DNA of 26,015 nucleotides from Candidatus Bathyarchaeia archaeon (GCA_038857155.1 JAWCGL010000001.1:573-26587), one strand, 5' to 3'; counted from the stretch's first letter, positions 16,322-26,015 are shown. Numbers and translations: made by a program. Notes: a model not told the origin generated them from the sequence alone.

Positions 16322-16336
16322 ATCCTAGCTCTACAC

Positions 16337-16356
16337 TATTTAAATCTGTATAAATA
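16337..16356 (+). promoter_or_regulatory. AT-rich TATA candidates for the iol cluster
   Basis: TATTTAAAT (16337-16345) and TATAAATA (16349-16356), 35-55 nt upstream of the GTG at 16392. Confidence 0.45.
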
Positions 16357-16391
16357 ACCTCTAATTCTACATCTTCGTCGATATCGTATCG

Positions 16392-17411
16392 GTGTGGTTA
16401 TTGAATCGTGTACGATACGCTGTTATCGGTTTAGGTAGGATAGGTAGGCTACATTGCGAAACGCTCAGATCGAGAATCGATGAAGCTGAGCTTGCAGCTG
16501 TATGCGATCTATCGGAGGATTTAGCTAGATCCATGGGGGAGAGGTTTCGAACAGTATGGCATTCAGATTATTCGAGAATTCTCGTAGATCCAAGTATCGA
16601 TGCTGTAATCGTAGCTACACCTACCTTCACCCATAAGAGTATAGTGTTAGAGGCTTTGAAGGAGGGGAAGCATGTATTCGTAGAGAAACCTCTAGCACCT
16701 TCATCGGGTGAAGCTAGGGAGATCGTCTCCGCCGCTAGGGGGAGCCATCTTAAGGTTATGGTAGGGTATCAGCGTAGATTCGACCCTGCGTATAGGGAAG
16801 CTAAACGTAGAATCGAGGAGGGTGTTATAGGCCGACCGGTATGCTTCATCGATATAGCTAGGGATCCGCAGCCCCCCTCAGGTTGGGCTGCCGATCCGAG
16901 GTTGAGTGGAGGTATATTCGCAGATATGCTTACGCATGATTTCGATATAGCGAGGTGGCTCTTAGGTTTGGAGGCATCGAAGGTTTACGTATCTGGTGGA
17001 AACCTGTTCTACAGCGATCTAAAGGTGCTCGGAGATCTAGATTTCGTTAATATAATGCTTGAATTCGAGGGTGGTGTTCAAGGCTTCATACAGGGTTGTA
17101 GGAGATCTGTATACGGCTACGATCTAAGGACTGAGATCTTGGGAACCGATGGTACGATCTCTATCGGTTGTAACTTCGATTATTCATTCTACTACGGTAC
17201 GTCTGAAGGTATAAGGTTCCATGGGGCTCCATGGTTTGAGAGAAGGTTTTACGAAGCTTATGTCGAGGAGTTAAGGAGTTTTACTGAAGCTATACTAAGC
17301 GATTCTACACCTCAGGTTACCGTGGAGGATGGGTATAAAGCTCTATGCATAGCCGATGCATGCTGGAGATCCTTCAGGGGTAAGAGTATCGTATCGTTGA
17401 ATTATAGATGA
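16392..17411 (+). CDS. iolG: Gfo/Idh/MocA oxidoreductase, myo-inositol 2-dehydrogenase-like
   Basis: VIGLGRIG, HVFVEKPLA, GYQRRFDP, RDP, GGIFADMLTHDFD, YGYDLRTEILG, WFERRFYEAY; context with iolM/N/O-like genes. Confidence 0.8.
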   Translation: MWLLNRVRYAVIGLGRIGRLHCETLRSRIDEAELAAVCDLSEDLARSMGERFRTVWHSDYSRILVDPSIDAVIVATPTFTHKSIVLEALKEGKHVFVEKPLAPSSGEAREIVSAARGSHLKVMVGYQRRFDPAYREAKRRIEEGVIGRPVCFIDIARDPQPPSGWAADPRLSGGIFADMLTHDFDIARWLLGLEASKVYVSGGNLFYSDLKVLGDLDFVNIMLEFEGGVQGFIQGCRRSVYGYDLRTEILGTDGTISIGCNFDYSFYYGTSEGIRFHGAPWFERRFYEAYVEELRSFTEAILSDSTPQVTVEDGYKALCIADACWRSFRGKSIVSLNYR

Positions 17412-17485
17412 TCAAGCTGAAGTTTAGTCGAGCTTAAATCCTTTTACTCGATGATTTATTCGTGGGGTGTAGAGTTTTGGATGGG

Positions 17486-18676
17486 ATGCTAGCTGCGGTC
17501 CTCTACGCAGATTTCGTTCCTCGTAGAGGCTATGCTGTATCGAGCGATGAAGCTGCTACTCGTAAGATTCGTGAGGGTAGTAATGTATGGAGGGATCCTA
17601 AGCTTACGCTAGAGGAGAGGGGTATTCCGAAGCCTAAAGGTAGAGAGGTGTTGATCAAGGTTAAAGCTGTAGGGATATGCGGTAGCGATGTTCATATGGT
17701 GGAATCGGATAGCGAAGGCTATATGCTGTATCCAGGTTTAACGAGGCTACCTGTAGTCTTGGGGCATGAGTTTAGCGGCATCGTCGAAGAGGTCGGTGGA
17801 GATGTTAGAAGCGTTAAACCTGGGGATATGGTTACCAGCGAGGAGATGCTTTGGTGTGGTGAATGCTTGATATGTAGATCGGTGGATGTAAATCATTGTA
17901 CTAGGCTTAACGATCCTAGAGATCTAGAGTTCGGTGAACTAGGCTTCACGCATGACGGTGCTATGGCTGAATACGTCGTAGTCCACGAGAAGTATCTTTG
18001 GGGTATAAACCCGCTTCTAGATAGGTATGGAAGCGAGGATAAAGCCTTCGAAGCAGGTAGCCTGGTAGAACCTGCATCCGTAGCGTATAGAGCGATATTC
18101 AATAGAGCTGGAGGGTTCGATCCAGGTAGCTACGTAGCCGTATGGGGTGCAGGGCCTATAGGTTTATCAGCTATAGCTCTAGCTAAAGCCGCAGGTGCTA
18201 GCAAGGTTATAGCTTTCGAGGTAAGCCCTGTTAGGATGGAGCTAGCTAGATCCATAGGTGCAGACTATGTATTCAGCCCAGTCGAACTCGAGAGAGTAGG
18301 TATGAAGCCTTGGGAGAAGATACTCGAGGTTACAGGTGGATGGGGTGTAGATCTACATGTAGAAGCTTCAGGCGTACCTGAGCTGCTAGCACAAATGGAG
18401 AAGAGCTTAGCCGTCGGAGGAAAGATTACATGGATAGGTAGGGCTCCTAGAGCTGTATCGCTGTATCCCGAGGTATTCCAGGTTAGGAGGGGGCAGATAT
18501 ACGGTAGCCAAGGCCACTCTGGATGGGGTATCTTCAGGAATGTTATAAGGTTGATGTCCTCCGGATCGATAGATACCACTAAGATGATAACTAGTAGGTT
18601 TAGGTTGAGCGATGTTTCTAAAGCGTTCGATAGGGCTAGACAGAGGATCGATGGTAAGATAACTTTGAAGCCTTAG
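17486..18676 (+). CDS. iolM: Zn-dependent dehydrogenase, scyllo-inosose 3-dehydrogenase-like
   Basis: GICGSDVH, GYMLYPGLT..PV.LGHEFSG, EEMLWCGECLIC...NHC, GSLVEP.SVAY, GAGPIG, and EVFQVRRGQIYGSQGHSG, which I recall as characteristic of Thermotoga IolM. Start ATG 17486 preferred. Confidence 0.85.
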   Translation: MLAAVLYADFVPRRGYAVSSDEAATRKIREGSNVWRDPKLTLEERGIPKPKGREVLIKVKAVGICGSDVHMVESDSEGYMLYPGLTRLPVVLGHEFSGIVEEVGGDVRSVKPGDMVTSEEMLWCGECLICRSVDVNHCTRLNDPRDLEFGELGFTHDGAMAEYVVVHEKYLWGINPLLDRYGSEDKAFEAGSLVEPASVAYRAIFNRAGGFDPGSYVAVWGAGPIGLSAIALAKAAGASKVIAFEVSPVRMELARSIGADYVFSPVELERVGMKPWEKILEVTGGWGVDLHVEASGVPELLAQMEKSLAVGGKITWIGRAPRAVSLYPEVFQVRRGQIYGSQGHSGWGIFRNVIRLMSSGSIDTTKMITSRFRLSDVSKAFDRARQRIDGKITLKP

Positions 18677-18737
18677 AATGTAGGGGGTAGAGTTATCTTC
18701 CCCGGCTACATCTGCATATATACTCGGTGTCAGCGTT

Positions 18738-19697
18738 ATGGGCTGTACAGTTGGTAGCCGCTGGTCTCAGCCGGTGTTAGATCGTTACAACCGTAAGATA
18801 TACTTAGATCAGATGAATACTAGGGAGCTTGAGGAGAAGGTGAAGGAGAACGATATAGTCTTCCTACCGGTCGGATCATTAGAAGCTCACGGGTCGTTCG
18901 CTCCTCTAGGGGAGGATACGATAATAGGTGTCTCTATAGCTGAGAGGATAGCCTATGAGACTGGTATCACGGTCGCTCCACCTATACCATATGGTAGCCA
19001 TCCTAGCCACCACTACGGTATACCTGGTACAACCCCAGTTAGAGCTACGCTACTAGCCGAGTATGTAGCAGAGATCGCTAGATGGCTCTCTAACGCTGGG
19101 TTTAAGAAGATCTTCATCTGGAATAGCCATGGGCAAGAGTATGTCCTCCCGATAGCTAAAGATCTAGCTATAGTAGAGAAAGGTGTCCATGCGCTTATAC
19201 TGGTTACCAGCTGGTGGGCCTGGGTTCAAGATATACTGAGGAAAGCCGGTAGCGGGGAGGAGGTAGCTCCAGGTGTGAGGATAGAGACGCCGTTCATACA
19301 TGCAGACGAGGTGGAGACGAGCGTCGTATGGTATCTAGCTCCAGATCTAATCGATGAAGAGAGGCTGAAGAGGGAGGGTGAATGGGGTGTATACAGACCG
19401 CTACCATCTAGATGGGTTAACACAGCTGGAAACGTATTCACGGATAGGCCCTTCAACTGGTACGATGTAGGCTCTCTACCGGAATTCTACTATTACCGTA
19501 AAGGCTTTGTAGGTTACGCTAAGCTTGCAGACCCGGCTAAAGGTAGGATTCTCGTCGAGAAGGTTATCGAGAGGGTTGTAGAGTTTGTAGAATGGCTTAA
19601 GAAGAATTATCCAGCAGGTAGGATACCTAGAACTTGGATAGAATTCGAGGATCTATATTTCGATAAACCTAGATCCTGGTGTGAACCTAGAGGTTAG
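18738..19697 (+). CDS. iolN: Creatininase-fold hydrolase, 3-dehydro-scyllo-inosose hydrolase-like
   Basis: PVGSLEAHG, GEDT, YGSHPSHHYGIPGT, NSHGQEYVLP, ETPFIHADEVETS, GYAKLADPAKG. Confidence 0.85.
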   Translation: MGCTVGSRWSQPVLDRYNRKIYLDQMNTRELEEKVKENDIVFLPVGSLEAHGSFAPLGEDTIIGVSIAERIAYETGITVAPPIPYGSHPSHHYGIPGTTPVRATLLAEYVAEIARWLSNAGFKKIFIWNSHGQEYVLPIAKDLAIVEKGVHALILVTSWWAWVQDILRKAGSGEEVAPGVRIETPFIHADEVETSVVWYLAPDLIDEERLKREGEWGVYRPLPSRWVNTAGNVFTDRPFNWYDVGSLPEFYYYRKGFVGYAKLADPAKGRILVEKVIERVVEFVEWLKKNYPAGRIPRTWIEFEDLYFDKPRSWCEPRG

Positions 19698-19703
19698 CTG
19701 TAG

Positions 19704-20519
19704 ATGTTTTCGTCGAAGCTATCCGTAGTGTATCTCCTAACATCGGATCCAAGATTTAACCTAGGTGTGAGGGGGCCTCTAGATAGCCTACTACCTAGGA
19801 TTAGATCCATAGGGATAGATGGTGTAGAGTATAACGTACCTAACCCGTTCGATGTGGATGGCGGTAGATTGCGTAGGGTTACCGAGGATTACGGATTAGA
19901 GATACCGGTATTATCGACAGGTTTATCGCATATACTCTACGGTATCAATCTATCCAGCGTAGATGATGATTCTAGGTTGAAAGCGGTGAAATGGCTGCGT
20001 CGATACATAGATCTATCGTGTGAGATCGGATCGTATAGAGTCGTCTTAGGCTTGGTTAGAGGTAGATGTACGGATCGAAGCCAGGGTCTGCAGCTCCTCG
20101 CATCCTCTCTAAGAGAGATTGATCGCTATGCGTATGAGAAGAGTGTAGATATACTGCTAGAACCGTTAAGTAGCGGTGAAACCAACCTTGTAAATAACCT
20201 TGAGGAGGCTCTAAGATTTGTAGAGATGTTTAGATCTATACGTATCCTATTCGATCTATACCATGCGTTAAACGAAGAGAAGGATCTCGCTAGATCCCTA
20301 GGATATGCTGGGAGATACATAGAGCATATACATACAGCGGATAGAAGTAGAGGTGTATCCGAGCTAGAAAAGCTACCTTTAAATCAGCTCTTCCACATCC
20401 TAAGCTCTATAGGATACAGAGGATATATAAGCTTAGAAGCTAGGATAGAGTATAGCATCGATGTCTCTCTTAGAAGATTCGTAAATACCGTCAAAGCTCT
20501 CCTTAAACCCTTACGATAA
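19704..20519 (+). CDS. iolO: Sugar isomerase/epimerase TIM barrel, 5-keto-L-gluconate epimerase-like
   Basis: STG, GLVRGR, LLEPL...ET..VN, FDLYH, HIHTAD..R, GY.GYISLE (metal ligands E, D, H, E present). Starts 6 nt after iolN. Confidence 0.72.
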   Translation: MFSSKLSVVYLLTSDPRFNLGVRGPLDSLLPRIRSIGIDGVEYNVPNPFDVDGGRLRRVTEDYGLEIPVLSTGLSHILYGINLSSVDDDSRLKAVKWLRRYIDLSCEIGSYRVVLGLVRGRCTDRSQGLQLLASSLREIDRYAYEKSVDILLEPLSSGETNLVNNLEEALRFVEMFRSIRILFDLYHALNEEKDLARSLGYAGRYIEHIHTADRSRGVSELEKLPLNQLFHILSSIGYRGYISLEARIEYSIDVSLRRFVNTVKALLKPLR

Positions 20520-20637
20520 ACCTAGGTCGATATCAAGCGTAGGGAGCATAGCCCCTCCGTTATATCATAGCATAATGAAGGGTAGGTATGCATAGATATG
20601 GGTAGAGATAGGATTATTAGCATCCTCAAAGTATATA

Positions 20638-21804
20638 ATGCATAGTTTGCGGATCTGCATCGTGGATCTATGCTTAACCTACCTACTACTCGCCTCTATA
20701 GCTATCGGATCATATATACCGTCCAATACTGGGTTGAGGTATCTCGAGTATAAGGTTTATGAGATTAAGGATGTAGCTACCCTAACCTATCTAGGTTCTA
20801 ATAGGACTGTCTACGTAGATTGGCTTGTCCCGGTGAATAATAGCCATCAGATATCCTATGTGCTCGAATTGAACACTGGAATATACGAGAGGTTTACGGA
20901 TAGATGGGGTAACACCATCTATAGGTTTAAGATCGATCTAGACGTGTATGGATCGACGTTTAGGTTGGAGGGGAGGTATCGCGTCGTATGCTATAGTACA
21001 GTTTCAGCAGTAGATACCGGGGGGTACGGTAGGGTAGAGGATATAGATCTCGATTATGTGGATCCGGTATATCTTGCTCCAAGCTATTGGTGGAATTTCA
21101 CGGATCCCGCTATATCTAAGCTTCTCGAAGAGATTAGATTACCCATAATCAAGGATTCCCGTATCGATGTGTTGATCGGAGAAGCTAAGAGGATCGTCAA
21201 TTCTAAGCTATCGTATAGGAGGATCGAGGAGAGGTTAGGTGCATCAGAAGCTTTGAGGAGGGGTTACGGGGATTGTTCAGAATTCTCAGATCTCCTAATA
21301 TCTCTAGCTAGAGGTTTAGGTATACCTGCTCGAAGGGTTTTAGGTGTGTATATCGAGGATTCCGAGGTTAAAGGTTGGCATGCGTGGGTCGAGGTGTGGA
21401 GTCCCTCCCTCGGATGGATACCTATAGAAGCTACCGATCCATTACCCCCGGTCAAGCCTCTAGGCTATATAACATCGAACTATCTAGCTCTATACGTCGA
21501 GGGATACCAGGAGGATACCGTAGATGAGGAGTTTAGGGATGAAGAAATAGTATTCGATGTTAGGCTAGTCGAATATGCCAGGTTGGTGGAGGATCCGTAT
21601 ATTAGGGTTGCTAGGGATCTCGCTATATCGGTATCTATAGCTGTATTAGCTATAGTCGTTATCCATATAGCTATGAAGATGTATAGATCTAGGGATATAG
21701 GCTATTCTTCGTATAGCTTGAATTCATCGTGTATCGCCCTCACAGCCTCCTCTCCATCCACCTCCCTGACGACGAAGGATATATTATACTCTGAGGAGCC
21801 TTGA
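20638..21804 (+). CDS. Membrane-anchored transglutaminase-like (cysteine protease fold) protein
   Basis: N-terminal hydrophobic signal/anchor, GDCSEFSDLLISLARGLGIPARRVLG, WHAWVEVW...GWIPIEAT, C-terminal TM LAISVSIAVLAIVVIHIAM. Confidence 0.85.
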   Translation: MHSLRICIVDLCLTYLLLASIAIGSYIPSNTGLRYLEYKVYEIKDVATLTYLGSNRTVYVDWLVPVNNSHQISYVLELNTGIYERFTDRWGNTIYRFKIDLDVYGSTFRLEGRYRVVCYSTVSAVDTGGYGRVEDIDLDYVDPVYLAPSYWWNFTDPAISKLLEEIRLPIIKDSRIDVLIGEAKRIVNSKLSYRRIEERLGASEALRRGYGDCSEFSDLLISLARGLGIPARRVLGVYIEDSEVKGWHAWVEVWSPSLGWIPIEATDPLPPVKPLGYITSNYLALYVEGYQEDTVDEEFRDEEIVFDVRLVEYARLVEDPYIRVARDLAISVSIAVLAIVVIHIAMKMYRSRDIGYSSYSLNSSCIALTASSPSTSLTTKDILYSEEP

Positions 21805-24550: not shown

Positions 24551-25708
24551 TTGAATCTACGGATTAGATTCCTGGAGGTAGCTAGATTCGGTAAACCGGA
24601 TAGGATACCGCTATCGCTGTGGGGTATTAGACCAGCTACGCTTAAGAGGTGGTGGAGGGAGGGTCTACCTCCTGGGATGGATGCAGCTACATACTTTAGA
24701 TTCGATATATACGGTATGAGGACTTTCAATATAACGTCGTGGCCCTCTGAAGGATTCCAGTGGGAGCCTAGCGATAGGCTTGTAAACCTAGGTCCTATCC
24801 CACCCTTCGAGTATAGGATTCTAAGGGAGGATGATAGGTATAGGGTATGGGTGGATAGTCTAGGTATAACCCAGCTAGGATTCCAAGATGATTGGAGGGA
24901 TGGGTGGAGCGGCTTCGCTACAAGGACATTCATAGATTTCCCTGTTAAGGGTAGGGAGGATTTCGAGCGTATAAAGGGTAAGTATGATCCGTATCATCCA
25001 GATAGGTATCCATCTAGATGGGGGGAGACGGTCGAGTTTTTAAGGAAGAATGACGATGGGAGCTTCCTCATACATATATCGTTGAGAGGCGTGTTCTGGT
25101 GGATCAGGGATATGATGGGGCTGGAGGCTACCCTGATAAGCTTCTTCAAGGATAGACAGCTTATCAGAGATATACTCGATCTATACCTGGATTTCCACGT
25201 CGAAGCTTTGAAGAGGGCTATCGGAGAGGTGGAGGTAGACTATGTTACGCTCAACGAGGATATGGCGTATAAACATGGACCTATGATCTCTCCCAAGATG
25301 TTTAGAGAGTACATCTCCCCGGTTTACCGTGAGCTCATCAAGTTCCTTAAGGATAATGGTGTTAAGATAGTTGTAGTGGATAGCGATGGATACGTCGAGC
25401 CTCTAATACCTGAGCTTCTATCGGTAGGGGTGGATGGTATATCTCCATGCGAAGTAGCCGCAGGTATGGATATAGTAGGGCTTAGGAGGAAGTATCCGAA
25501 TCTCGTTATGATGGGTGGTATAGATAAGAGAATGCTAGCATCATCTAGATCAGATATAGATAGAGAGGTCTACAGGAAGGTCCCGCCGCTAGTGGAGAGT
25601 AGAGGCTACTTTCCAGGTGTAGACCACGCCGTCCCACCAGATGTATCGTTCGAGAATTTCAGCTACTTCGTAGAGCTTCTTAAAAAGCTATGCGGCTGGG
25701 TCGATTAA
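24551..25708 (+). CDS. Uroporphyrinogen decarboxylase / MtaA-CmuA superfamily protein
   Basis: N-terminal PDRIP, NEDMAYKHGPMISPKMFREY, VVVDSDG, GVDGISPCEVAAGMD, MGGIDKR, GYFPGVDHAVPPDVSFENF. TTG start. Confidence 0.85.
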   Translation: MNLRIRFLEVARFGKPDRIPLSLWGIRPATLKRWWREGLPPGMDAATYFRFDIYGMRTFNITSWPSEGFQWEPSDRLVNLGPIPPFEYRILREDDRYRVWVDSLGITQLGFQDDWRDGWSGFATRTFIDFPVKGREDFERIKGKYDPYHPDRYPSRWGETVEFLRKNDDGSFLIHISLRGVFWWIRDMMGLEATLISFFKDRQLIRDILDLYLDFHVEALKRAIGEVEVDYVTLNEDMAYKHGPMISPKMFREYISPVYRELIKFLKDNGVKIVVVDSDGYVEPLIPELLSVGVDGISPCEVAAGMDIVGLRRKYPNLVMMGGIDKRMLASSRSDIDREVYRKVPPLVESRGYFPGVDHAVPPDVSFENFSYFVELLKKLCGWVD

Positions 25709-25725
25709 CCTATAGGTGGCTATCC

Positions 25726-26015
25726 TTGGATAATGGATACTACTCTCTATCGTTAGAGGATCTCTGCGATCTAGCTGTGAAGCTAGGAGCTAAAACCGCT
25801 AGGATCCTAGGATCTGGGGATATCGTAGTCGCAGATTGGGTTCGACTTAAATGTATGTATGGATGTGGTGGCTACGGTGAGAAGCTTACATGCCCACCAT
25901 ACTCTCCGACACCAGAGGAGACTAGGAGGATACTTAGATCGTATGAATACTGTATACTGGTAGAGTTCCCGCCTGAAGCTGATATCCATAGGGTTATGGC
26001 TAGACTTGAGAGGGA
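25726..26015 (+). CDS. DUF2284 family Cys-rich predicted metal-binding protein, truncated at the window end (absent from the ORF track)
   Basis: TTG 25726 with RBS AGGTGG (25714-25719). Open to the end: MDNGYYSLSLEDLCDLAVKLGAKTARIL...WVRLKCMYGCGGYGEKLTCPPYSPTPEETRRILRSY... Confidence 0.85.
   Translation, partial: MDNGYYSLSLEDLCDLAVKLGAKTARILGSGDIVVADWVRLKCMYGCGGYGEKLTCPPYSPTPEETRRILRSYEYCILVEFPPEADIHRVMARLER

Follow-up and report, generated by a model that had tools for sequence, protein, structure and literature searches.

The window, by which we mean the whole 26,015-nucleotide stretch analysed here, comes from contig C1 of a Bathyarchaeia-like metagenome-assembled genome (MAG) from a hot spring (GCA_038857155.1, JAWCGL010000001.1:573-26587). 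It carries four genes, iolG, iolM, iolN and iolO, that probably encode the upper half of an oxidative inositol pathway of the Thermotoga type. The MAG amounts to 1.23 Mb in 195 contigs at 80% completeness, and the stretch is present in hot-spring metagenome runs of four studies. In what follows, G000 is the window's genome and C-numbers are its contigs; other G-numbers denote genomes and L-numbers denote loci. The promoter region and the four open reading frames (ORFs) are these:

16322-16391, plus strand: putative promoter region with TATA-like boxes, read from the sequence and kept, with a 5' stub of iolG, in a congener that has lost the cluster
16392-17411, plus strand: iolG-like gene for a predicted NAD-dependent inositol 2-dehydrogenase of the Gfo/Idh/MocA family (TIGR04380, PDB 3ezy, catalytic residues)
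17462-18676, plus strand: iolM, for a predicted scyllo-inosose 3-dehydrogenase, a zinc-dependent medium-chain dehydrogenase/reductase (MDR) (NF041097 above cut-off, tree, zinc ligands)
18738-19697, plus strand: iolN-like gene for a predicted 3-dehydro-scyllo-inosose hydrolase with the creatininase fold (NF041098 as best family, adjacency to IolM)
19704-20519, plus strand: iolO-like gene for a predicted 5-keto-L-gluconate epimerase, a xylose-isomerase-like TIM barrel (NF041099 as best family, TM_0416, PDB 2zvr)

Successive ORFs are separated by 50, 61 and 6 nt. In the 70-nt spacer that follows the stop codon of mer, TTTAAA (16339-16344) and TATAAATA (16349-16356) both lie about 40-50 nt ahead of the GTG start of iolG, and the spacer is plausibly an archaeal promoter; a scan for sigma-70 promoters and terminators was set aside as not meaningful for an archaeon. 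Any position from 16392 to 16401 could be the iolG start codon, and homologues of 396 aa point to the ATG at 17486 as the likely true start of IolM. We propose that the four genes form one transcription unit. No RNA dataset was among those listed as containing the stretch. A DNA run covered it; one RNA-Seq run gave no cover and an ambiguous 'metatranscriptomic WGS' run gave two 151-nt contigs, neither of which has any bearing on expression. A first-pass annotation had described four co-oriented genes behind an AT-rich promoter region and had singled out four motifs. The gene arrangement is confirmed, and all four motifs are present: EVFQVRRGQIYGSQGHSG in IolM, ETPFIHADEVETS and HPSHHYGIPGT in IolN, and GLVRGR in IolO.

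For each of the four proteins, the best NCBIfam family is the matching step of the Thermotoga route; their Pfam domains, in gene order, are GFO_IDH_MocA, a zinc-dependent MDR, creatininase and AP_endonuc_2. IolM alone exceeds its equivalog cut-off (NF041097, 503.5 bits; cut-off 450). IolG reaches 319 bits on TIGR04380 (cut-off 355), IolN 215 bits on NF041098 (cut-off 245) and IolO 145 bits on NF041099 (cut-off 300), with psicose epimerase as the runner-up at 66 bits. Two other assignments fail: L-threonine 3-dehydrogenase for the MDR gene (TIGR00692, 202 bits against a cut-off of 458) and creatininase for the hydrolase gene (TIGR04448, 106 bits against a cut-off of 235).

Structural matches and active-site residues are consistent with these assignments. 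The best PDB match of IolG is 3ezy (214 bits), followed by named inositol 2-dehydrogenases, with scyllo-inositol, chiro-inositol and other sugar dehydrogenases also among the matches. IolM matches 3ip1 best (312 bits), threonine dehydrogenases coming next at 158 bits, and IolO matches TM_0416 (2zvr, 99 bits), with the next entry at 61 bits; IolN has no close PDB structure and finds creatininases only. We take 3ezy and 3ip1, whose entries are titled only 'dehydrogenase', to be TM0414 and TM0412 of T. maritima. GLGRIG, EKP (98-100) and D178-x3-H182 are kept in IolG, and the catalytic and structural zinc ligands of IolM are invariant in the alignment. The residues of IolO that are presumably the Glu/Asp/His/Glu metal ligands of ketose 3-epimerases are identical to those of TM_0416 in the alignment.

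In a tree of 80 sequences, a long starred branch sets threonine-dehydrogenase-like MDRs apart from the IolM family. The window's IolM lies within a Thermoproteota subclade marked 99*, inside the IolM family; clustering with other MDR subfamilies had been named in the first-pass annotation as grounds for refutation. Its nearest homologues, at 88-91% identity, come from hot-spring metagenomes (NCBI calls one '[Candidatus Bathyarchaeia archaeon]'); homologues at 65-75% come from Thermofilaceae, Ignisphaera and Pyrodictiaceae, and one from Njordarchaeota stands at 55%. PGAP already labels several archaeal copies 'scyllo-inosose 3-dehydrogenase'. Wherever IolM is at least 40% identical, homologues of IolN, IolO and IolG are almost always found within a few kb (about 40 loci), and two other genomes of the genus, like related metagenome contigs, retain the synteny of the cluster. 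The four-gene module occurs in Chloroflexota, Bacillota, Ignavibacteriota, Thermotogota, Dictyoglomota and archaea; being common to many bacterial phyla as well as archaea, it is widely shared and not an archaeal peculiarity. Within the phylum, IolM scores above its cut-off in 23 of 301 sampled genomes, or 10 of 123 genera; the 23 include six from a single genus, of which five are assemblies of one or two contigs. The complete genome of the cultured Infirmifilum lucidum has two IolM paralogues (P0019 and P0021; L010), whose identity to the window's IolM is about 71% in either case; one of the two stands in an IolO / IolM-IolN-2-Hacid_dh locus without an adjoining IolG.

The four genes are under purifying selection, as judged from the ratio of nonsynonymous to synonymous substitution rates (dN/dS) against two congeners: 0.12-0.13 for iolG, 0.09-0.10 for iolM, 0.055-0.074 for iolN and 0.14-0.20 for iolO. 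A third genome of the genus (G025, completeness 95%) lacks IolM. At its empty site (L113, on its contig C2; compared with window positions 16322-20637), the flanks align as far as 16521 and resume at 20597, about 240 nt apart, and what remains is the promoter and the first 43 or so iolG codons, with an altered Rossmann motif (GLGRVDR) and a stop codon. This stub and the exact deletion of four genes indicate that the ancestor of the genus had the cluster and that one line lost it whole by deletion. Because exactly these four genes were lost together, they behave as one dispensable unit. From these sequence comparisons, the cluster is an accessory trait that selection keeps where it is present and that has been lost secondarily within the genus.

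Best curated families, PDB matches, tree and synteny all uphold the identification of the proteins as IolG, IolM, IolN and IolO, and the first reading of the cluster is supported by homology, synteny and selection at the level of sequence. The label 'Thermotoga-type' needs qualifying: IolM is above its equivalog cut-off, alone among the four, and the archaeal clade falls outside the Thermotoga subclade. We consider it likely that the cluster provides the ring-opening upper half of the pathway, with substrates assigned by homology to the characterised T. maritima enzymes. IolG would oxidise myo-inositol, or a close isomer, with NAD+ to scyllo-inosose, and IolM would oxidise this to 3-dehydro-scyllo-inosose. 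The creatininase-fold hydrolase IolN would then open the ring of the diketone to give 5-keto-L-gluconate, and the TIM-barrel epimerase IolO would invert the carbon beside the keto group to give D-tagaturonate.

A locus in a relative bears on where the inositol might come from. A Pyrodictiaceae MAG (L019) has an IolM with 71% identity to that of the window, and with its iol genes stand those for an ATP-binding cassette (ABC) importer, a glycerophosphodiester phosphodiesterase (GDPD) and a PfkB kinase. The L019 binding protein is 51% identical to those of the Pseudothermotoga and Dictyoglomaceae iol clusters, and the L019 PfkB is 30-37% identical to PfkB genes of bacterial iol clusters, that of Pseudothermotoga included. 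By position, these PfkB proteins look to be of the TM0415 type; TM0415 is a pyrophosphate-dependent inositol kinase (PMC5931981). The importer and phosphodiesterase of relatives suggest, by analogy, that inositol is scavenged from lipids or di-myo-inositol phosphate. Alternatively, self-made inositol is a possible substrate, as the window's genome encodes an inositol-3-phosphate synthase and a phosphatase of the IMPase family. A transporter gene of the MFS_1 family (L016:1096-2265, contig C24) is convergent with the synthase gene; its product may be a candidate inositol carrier or may be unrelated.

For the steps beyond D-tagaturonate, most of the usual enzymes are missing from what we searched. 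UxuA was not found in the window's genome, which is 80% complete. Five IolM-positive genomes of 93-99% completeness, of which two are essentially closed, yielded no member of the families of UxuA, Mannitol_dh (UxuB/UxaB) and the GD_AH altronate dehydratase (UxaA); the searches did not take in non-orthologous analogues. The first-pass annotation had suggested looking for downstream enzymes of this kind, and a UxaE-like gene is the one that turned up. It lies on contig C125 (PF16257, 75.8-78.3 bits; cut-off 27.1) and is divergent, the structure nearest to it being 9kcs (469 bits), titled only 'isomerase'; a canonical UxaE (521 bits) occupies the equivalent position in the cluster of G103.

Four further genes of the window's genome may belong to the same route. 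A second AP_endonuc_2 barrel, which we call TIM2, is encoded on C47 and is 52% identical to its L019 homologue. A 700-aa protein with a transaldolase/fructose-6-phosphate aldolase (TAL/FSA) domain, here called the TAL-like protein, is encoded on C11 and is 44% identical to its L019 homologue. Adjoining its gene is one for a 2-hydroxyacid dehydrogenase, which shares 62% identity with the enzyme beside an Infirmifilum IolN and scores above the cut-off of the glyoxylate reductase equivalog (476 bits; cut-off 455). Lastly, a MOFRL-type glycerate kinase is encoded on C53.

The UxaE-like, TIM2, TAL-like and reductase genes keep company with iolM in other archaea. Among the 301 genomes, the UxaE-family gene occurs in 19 and the TAL-like gene in 20 of the 23 that have IolM, and the TAL-like gene occurs in 27 of the 29 that have the UxaE-family gene, although the sampled genomes are related and Fisher p-values overstate this co-occurrence. 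The TAL-like gene lies inside the iol clusters of four lineages (L019, L099, L109 of Bathyarchaeota BA1, and L110), the order at L099 being IolN-IolO-IolM-IolG-TIM2-UxaE-TAL. In two IolM-negative genomes (L101 and L102), the UxaE-like, TIM2 and TAL-like genes are contiguous. At L101 (G210:C1:312000-331999) a MOFRL glycerate kinase gene follows directly, a link that we had predicted before finding it there, and GH4 and GH2 glycosidases and two 2-hydroxyacid dehydrogenases are encoded nearby; this IolM-negative locus suggests that the lower route also serves glycoside-derived uronates. Bacterial iol loci have none of these genes within 10 kb.

The TAL-like protein is an unusual member of its fold. 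Its AlphaFold model, built on 26 sequences, has a predicted local distance difference test (pLDDT) score of 94.4 and a predicted template-modelling (pTM) score of 0.93. Foldseek returned transaldolases only, with identities of 11-15% and a template-modelling (TM) score, taken on the target, of about 0.65; large insertions break up the barrel, and an N-terminal helical domain precedes it. Invariant motifs comprise an Asp in GNDYA, STNP, a Lys (K333) in IVFKVAA, GTNNTVTFTVSQ, an Arg in GGRLEDH and a Gln in SYQLNP. By comparison with TalB, K333 is presumably the Schiff-base lysine, and the Asp, Asn and Arg motifs likewise appear to have TalB counterparts; we take the SYQLNP Gln to stand at the position of Gln59 in FSA and Glu96 in TalB. 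With 38 representatives at E<=1e-30 among 1.84 billion, this is a small family, and its annotations go no further than 'transaldolase family protein' or hypothetical. None of the matches in that exhaustive search was a full-length fusion of UxaE and TAL, and a search for longer forms returned nothing. The ORF on C11 (L097:4211-6313) starts about 40 residues later than its homologues, with a tblastn match from 4193. Upstream of it lies a divergent gene whose product, a threonine-dehydrogenase-like MDR, reaches 228 bits on the IolM model; G017 keeps this arrangement. Several matches to TAL-like or UxaE-like proteins (in G210, G091, G270, G031 and G087, genomes otherwise of high quality) carry one in-frame stop (TAA, TAG or TGA); these could be pseudogenes, sequencing errors or cases of recoding.

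From these observations we tentatively propose a lower half that would not proceed by the route of Thermotoga and E. coli (UxuB, UxuA, KdgK, KdgA) and whose genes would be dispersed in the genome. The UxaE-family epimerase would convert D-tagaturonate to D-fructuronate, which has the D-threo configuration at C3-C4 that TAL/FSA enzymes need and carries at C6 a carboxylate where fructose-6-phosphate has its phosphate. The TAL-like enzyme could then split off a dihydroxyacetone unit in an aldol cleavage or pass it on to an aldose phosphate, in either case leaving tartronate semialdehyde. TIM2 and the glyoxylate/hydroxypyruvate reductase encoded on C11 could convert tartronate semialdehyde to glycerate, and the MOFRL kinase would phosphorylate glycerate to 2-phosphoglycerate for entry into glycolysis. 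One could extend this, as a speculation that may well prove wrong, to Thermoproteota at large and probably some Asgard archaea: both inositol and hexuronates would be broken down through the TAL-like enzyme in a way that bypasses 2-keto-3-deoxygluconate (KDG), with the iol genes as an inositol-specific feeder. If this is true, the iol genes would serve hot-spring archaea in recycling or scavenging the inositol of lipids and of di-myo-inositol phosphate.

Several observations weigh against this account. Three of the four proteins (IolG, IolN and IolO) score below their equivalog cut-offs, and the Pseudothermotoga IolM, about 43% identical to the window's, sits apart from the archaeal clade in another, mostly bacterial subclade. 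Homologues of the L019 binding protein, permease, GDPD and PfkB were not found in the window's genome, nor was a Peripla_BP_4 binding protein found in three genomes of the genus; the genomic sugar ABC transporter that the first-pass annotation had proposed seeking did not turn up in this form. The host genome, at 80%, is incomplete. T. maritima itself shows no growth on inositol (PMC3750489), which makes a role in growth uncertain even in the model system. As to the lower half, the similarity of TIM2 to Hyi (33.5 bits), IolO and IolI is weak and it has no match to IolE. In this genus the lower-route genes are scattered on C11, C47 and C125 among housekeeping operons, and because they lie amid unrelated housekeeping genes they gain no support from local context. 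The C47 copy of TIM2 (L098:3186-4130), for example, stands between ilvN and ilvC in a branched-chain amino-acid operon. Finally, 15 of 17 genomes of the order have no match to TAL/FSA (PF00923) other than the TAL-like protein, which could therefore be an ordinary transaldolase.

This last point leads to the alternative that survives best, though we think it somewhat unlikely: the upper half is as proposed, the lower half is a canonical KDG route run by non-orthologous enzymes, and the TAL-like protein is a housekeeping transaldolase. The enzymes would be a fructuronate reductase of the short-chain or 2-hydroxyacid dehydrogenase type, a mannonate dehydratase of the enolase superfamily, the PfkB kinase encoded on C99 and an archaeal aldolase acting on KDG or its phosphate. 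Our searches did not extend to enolase-superfamily dehydratases or to aldolases of the dihydrodipicolinate synthase type, and the TAL-like gene is commoner than iolM in the 301 genomes (47 against 23); both facts, like its status as sole PF00923 match, agree with this alternative. For the PfkB of this genome, the archaeal KDG/KDGal kinase model gives 167 bits and that of tagatose kinase 304 bits, but both scores are under the cut-offs (400 and 420). Against a housekeeping role, the TAL-like gene lies in or beside iol or UxaE clusters in at least six lineages and accompanies nearly every UxaE-family gene, and at L101 it is glycerate kinase that directly follows it, not KDG enzymes.

A different doubt concerns the upper half. 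The cluster might act on another cyclitol or keto-sugar (scyllo-inositol, D-chiro-inositol, inosose from elsewhere or a non-inositol polyol) and yield another keto-acid, in which case the Thermotoga names would serve as guides to family level and no further. Gfo/Idh/MocA enzymes vary in substrate, and the three scores under equivalog cut-offs, the separate subclade of the window's IolM and the range of dehydrogenases among the IolG matches would all suit such a reading. We judge it improbable, however, since IolM is above its cut-off and all four best families point to one pathway, since the composition of the module is constant from Thermotogota to archaea, and since an archaeal cluster of the same clade (L019) has a binding protein half identical to those of Pseudothermotoga and Dictyoglomaceae. 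That the iol genes are a decaying or silent remnant without present function, as their deletion in G025 might be taken to hint, is very improbable indeed given four intact frames with catalytic residues retained, dN/dS values (0.05-0.20) equal to those of aspS and mer, and synteny kept in two congeners and related metagenome contigs. Ring opening of inositol remains the reading of the four genes that we prefer.

The surroundings of the cluster are housekeeping genes. Profile searches of the window identified, upstream, a Cdv cell-division cluster, npdG, lhr, rimI, pyrE, aspS and mer, and downstream, transglutaminase-like, aspartokinase-like and ornithine-cyclodeaminase-like genes. The statement in the first-pass annotation that the cluster has no kinase, transporter or regulator agrees with this, as none stands beside the four genes within the window. 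The transglutaminase-like gene (20638-21804) was considered as a fifth member and rejected: it stays in the genome that has lost the cluster and is unlinked to iol genes outside the genus. At the far end of the window (24551-26013) lie a gene of the URO-D family (MtaA-like) and a DUF2284 gene, and a RACo corrinoid activase is encoded on C11 (L097:170-2020); together these hint at a corrinoid methyltransferase system in an archaeon that bears mer and F420.

We found no paper on a Thermotoga-type inositol pathway in archaea and none on a fructuronate aldolase. A 2022 survey, which covered only the Bacillus-type genes, came upon scattered homologues in five archaeal genomes and judged Bacillus-type inositol capability to be essentially confined to Bacteria (PMC9430895). 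The first-pass annotation was aware of no biochemically described case in archaea; as sequence records such cases are not new, since databases (PGAP) already name archaeal copies and cultured Thermofilaceae carry them. What our analysis adds is that about 8% of the sampled Thermoproteota genomes have a Thermotoga-type module, intact and under selection. Its carriers include cultured Thermofilaceae, which are open to direct testing and so offer a way to approach the turnover of inositol in hot and anoxic habitats. Archaeal lipids have inositol as a major head group, and di-myo-inositol phosphate is the main compatible solute of hyperthermophiles, yet no archaeal route for breaking inositol down is known from the literature. 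The missing uronate enzymes, together with a co-occurring enzyme of the transaldolase fold, are a pointer to new sugar-acid chemistry.

Set beside known systems, the upper pathway looks like a further member of one already described, and the archaeal system overall looks to be a variant whose lower half is different and undescribed. The oxidative inositol pathway of T. maritima reportedly comprises TM0411-TM0416 (Rodionova et al. 2013, Environ Microbiol 15:2254, as cited in PMC3750489), with IolG as TM0414, IolM as TM0412, IolN as TM0413 and IolO as TM0416. As in that pathway, the same four enzyme families are clustered here, and the genome has a gene of the UxaE family. Unlike in T. maritima, no kinase of the TM0415 type and no InoEFGK importer was found in the window or the genome, no IolR (ROK) regulator lies in the window (ROK was not searched genome-wide), the UxuB/UxuA lower route was not found and UxaE is divergent, whereas archaeal clusters add the TAL-like enzyme, TIM2 and a 2-hydroxyacid dehydrogenase.

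The iol pathway of Bacillus subtilis and Salmonella (IolG, IolE, IolD, IolB, IolC, IolJ, IolA) has the first step in common, an inositol 2-dehydrogenase of the Gfo/Idh/MocA family. After scyllo-inosose the two routes part: the dehydratase IolE and the thiamine-diphosphate-dependent hydrolase IolD act there, whereas a second oxidation and a creatininase-fold hydrolysis would follow here. On the IolC N-terminal model, whose cut-off is 300 bits, a PfkB kinase of this genome reaches 178 bits. The TAL-like protein shares its TIM-barrel fold with E. coli TalB and FSA (PF00923) but is far larger (700-730 aa against 220-320 aa) and shares little sequence with them, at 11-15% identity. The last steps of the proposed lower half would draw on the same families as the bacterial glycerate pathway of Hyi, GhrB and glycerate kinase, namely an AP_endonuc_2 barrel, a 2-Hacid_dh enzyme and a MOFRL kinase, although TIM2 resembles Hyi only weakly.

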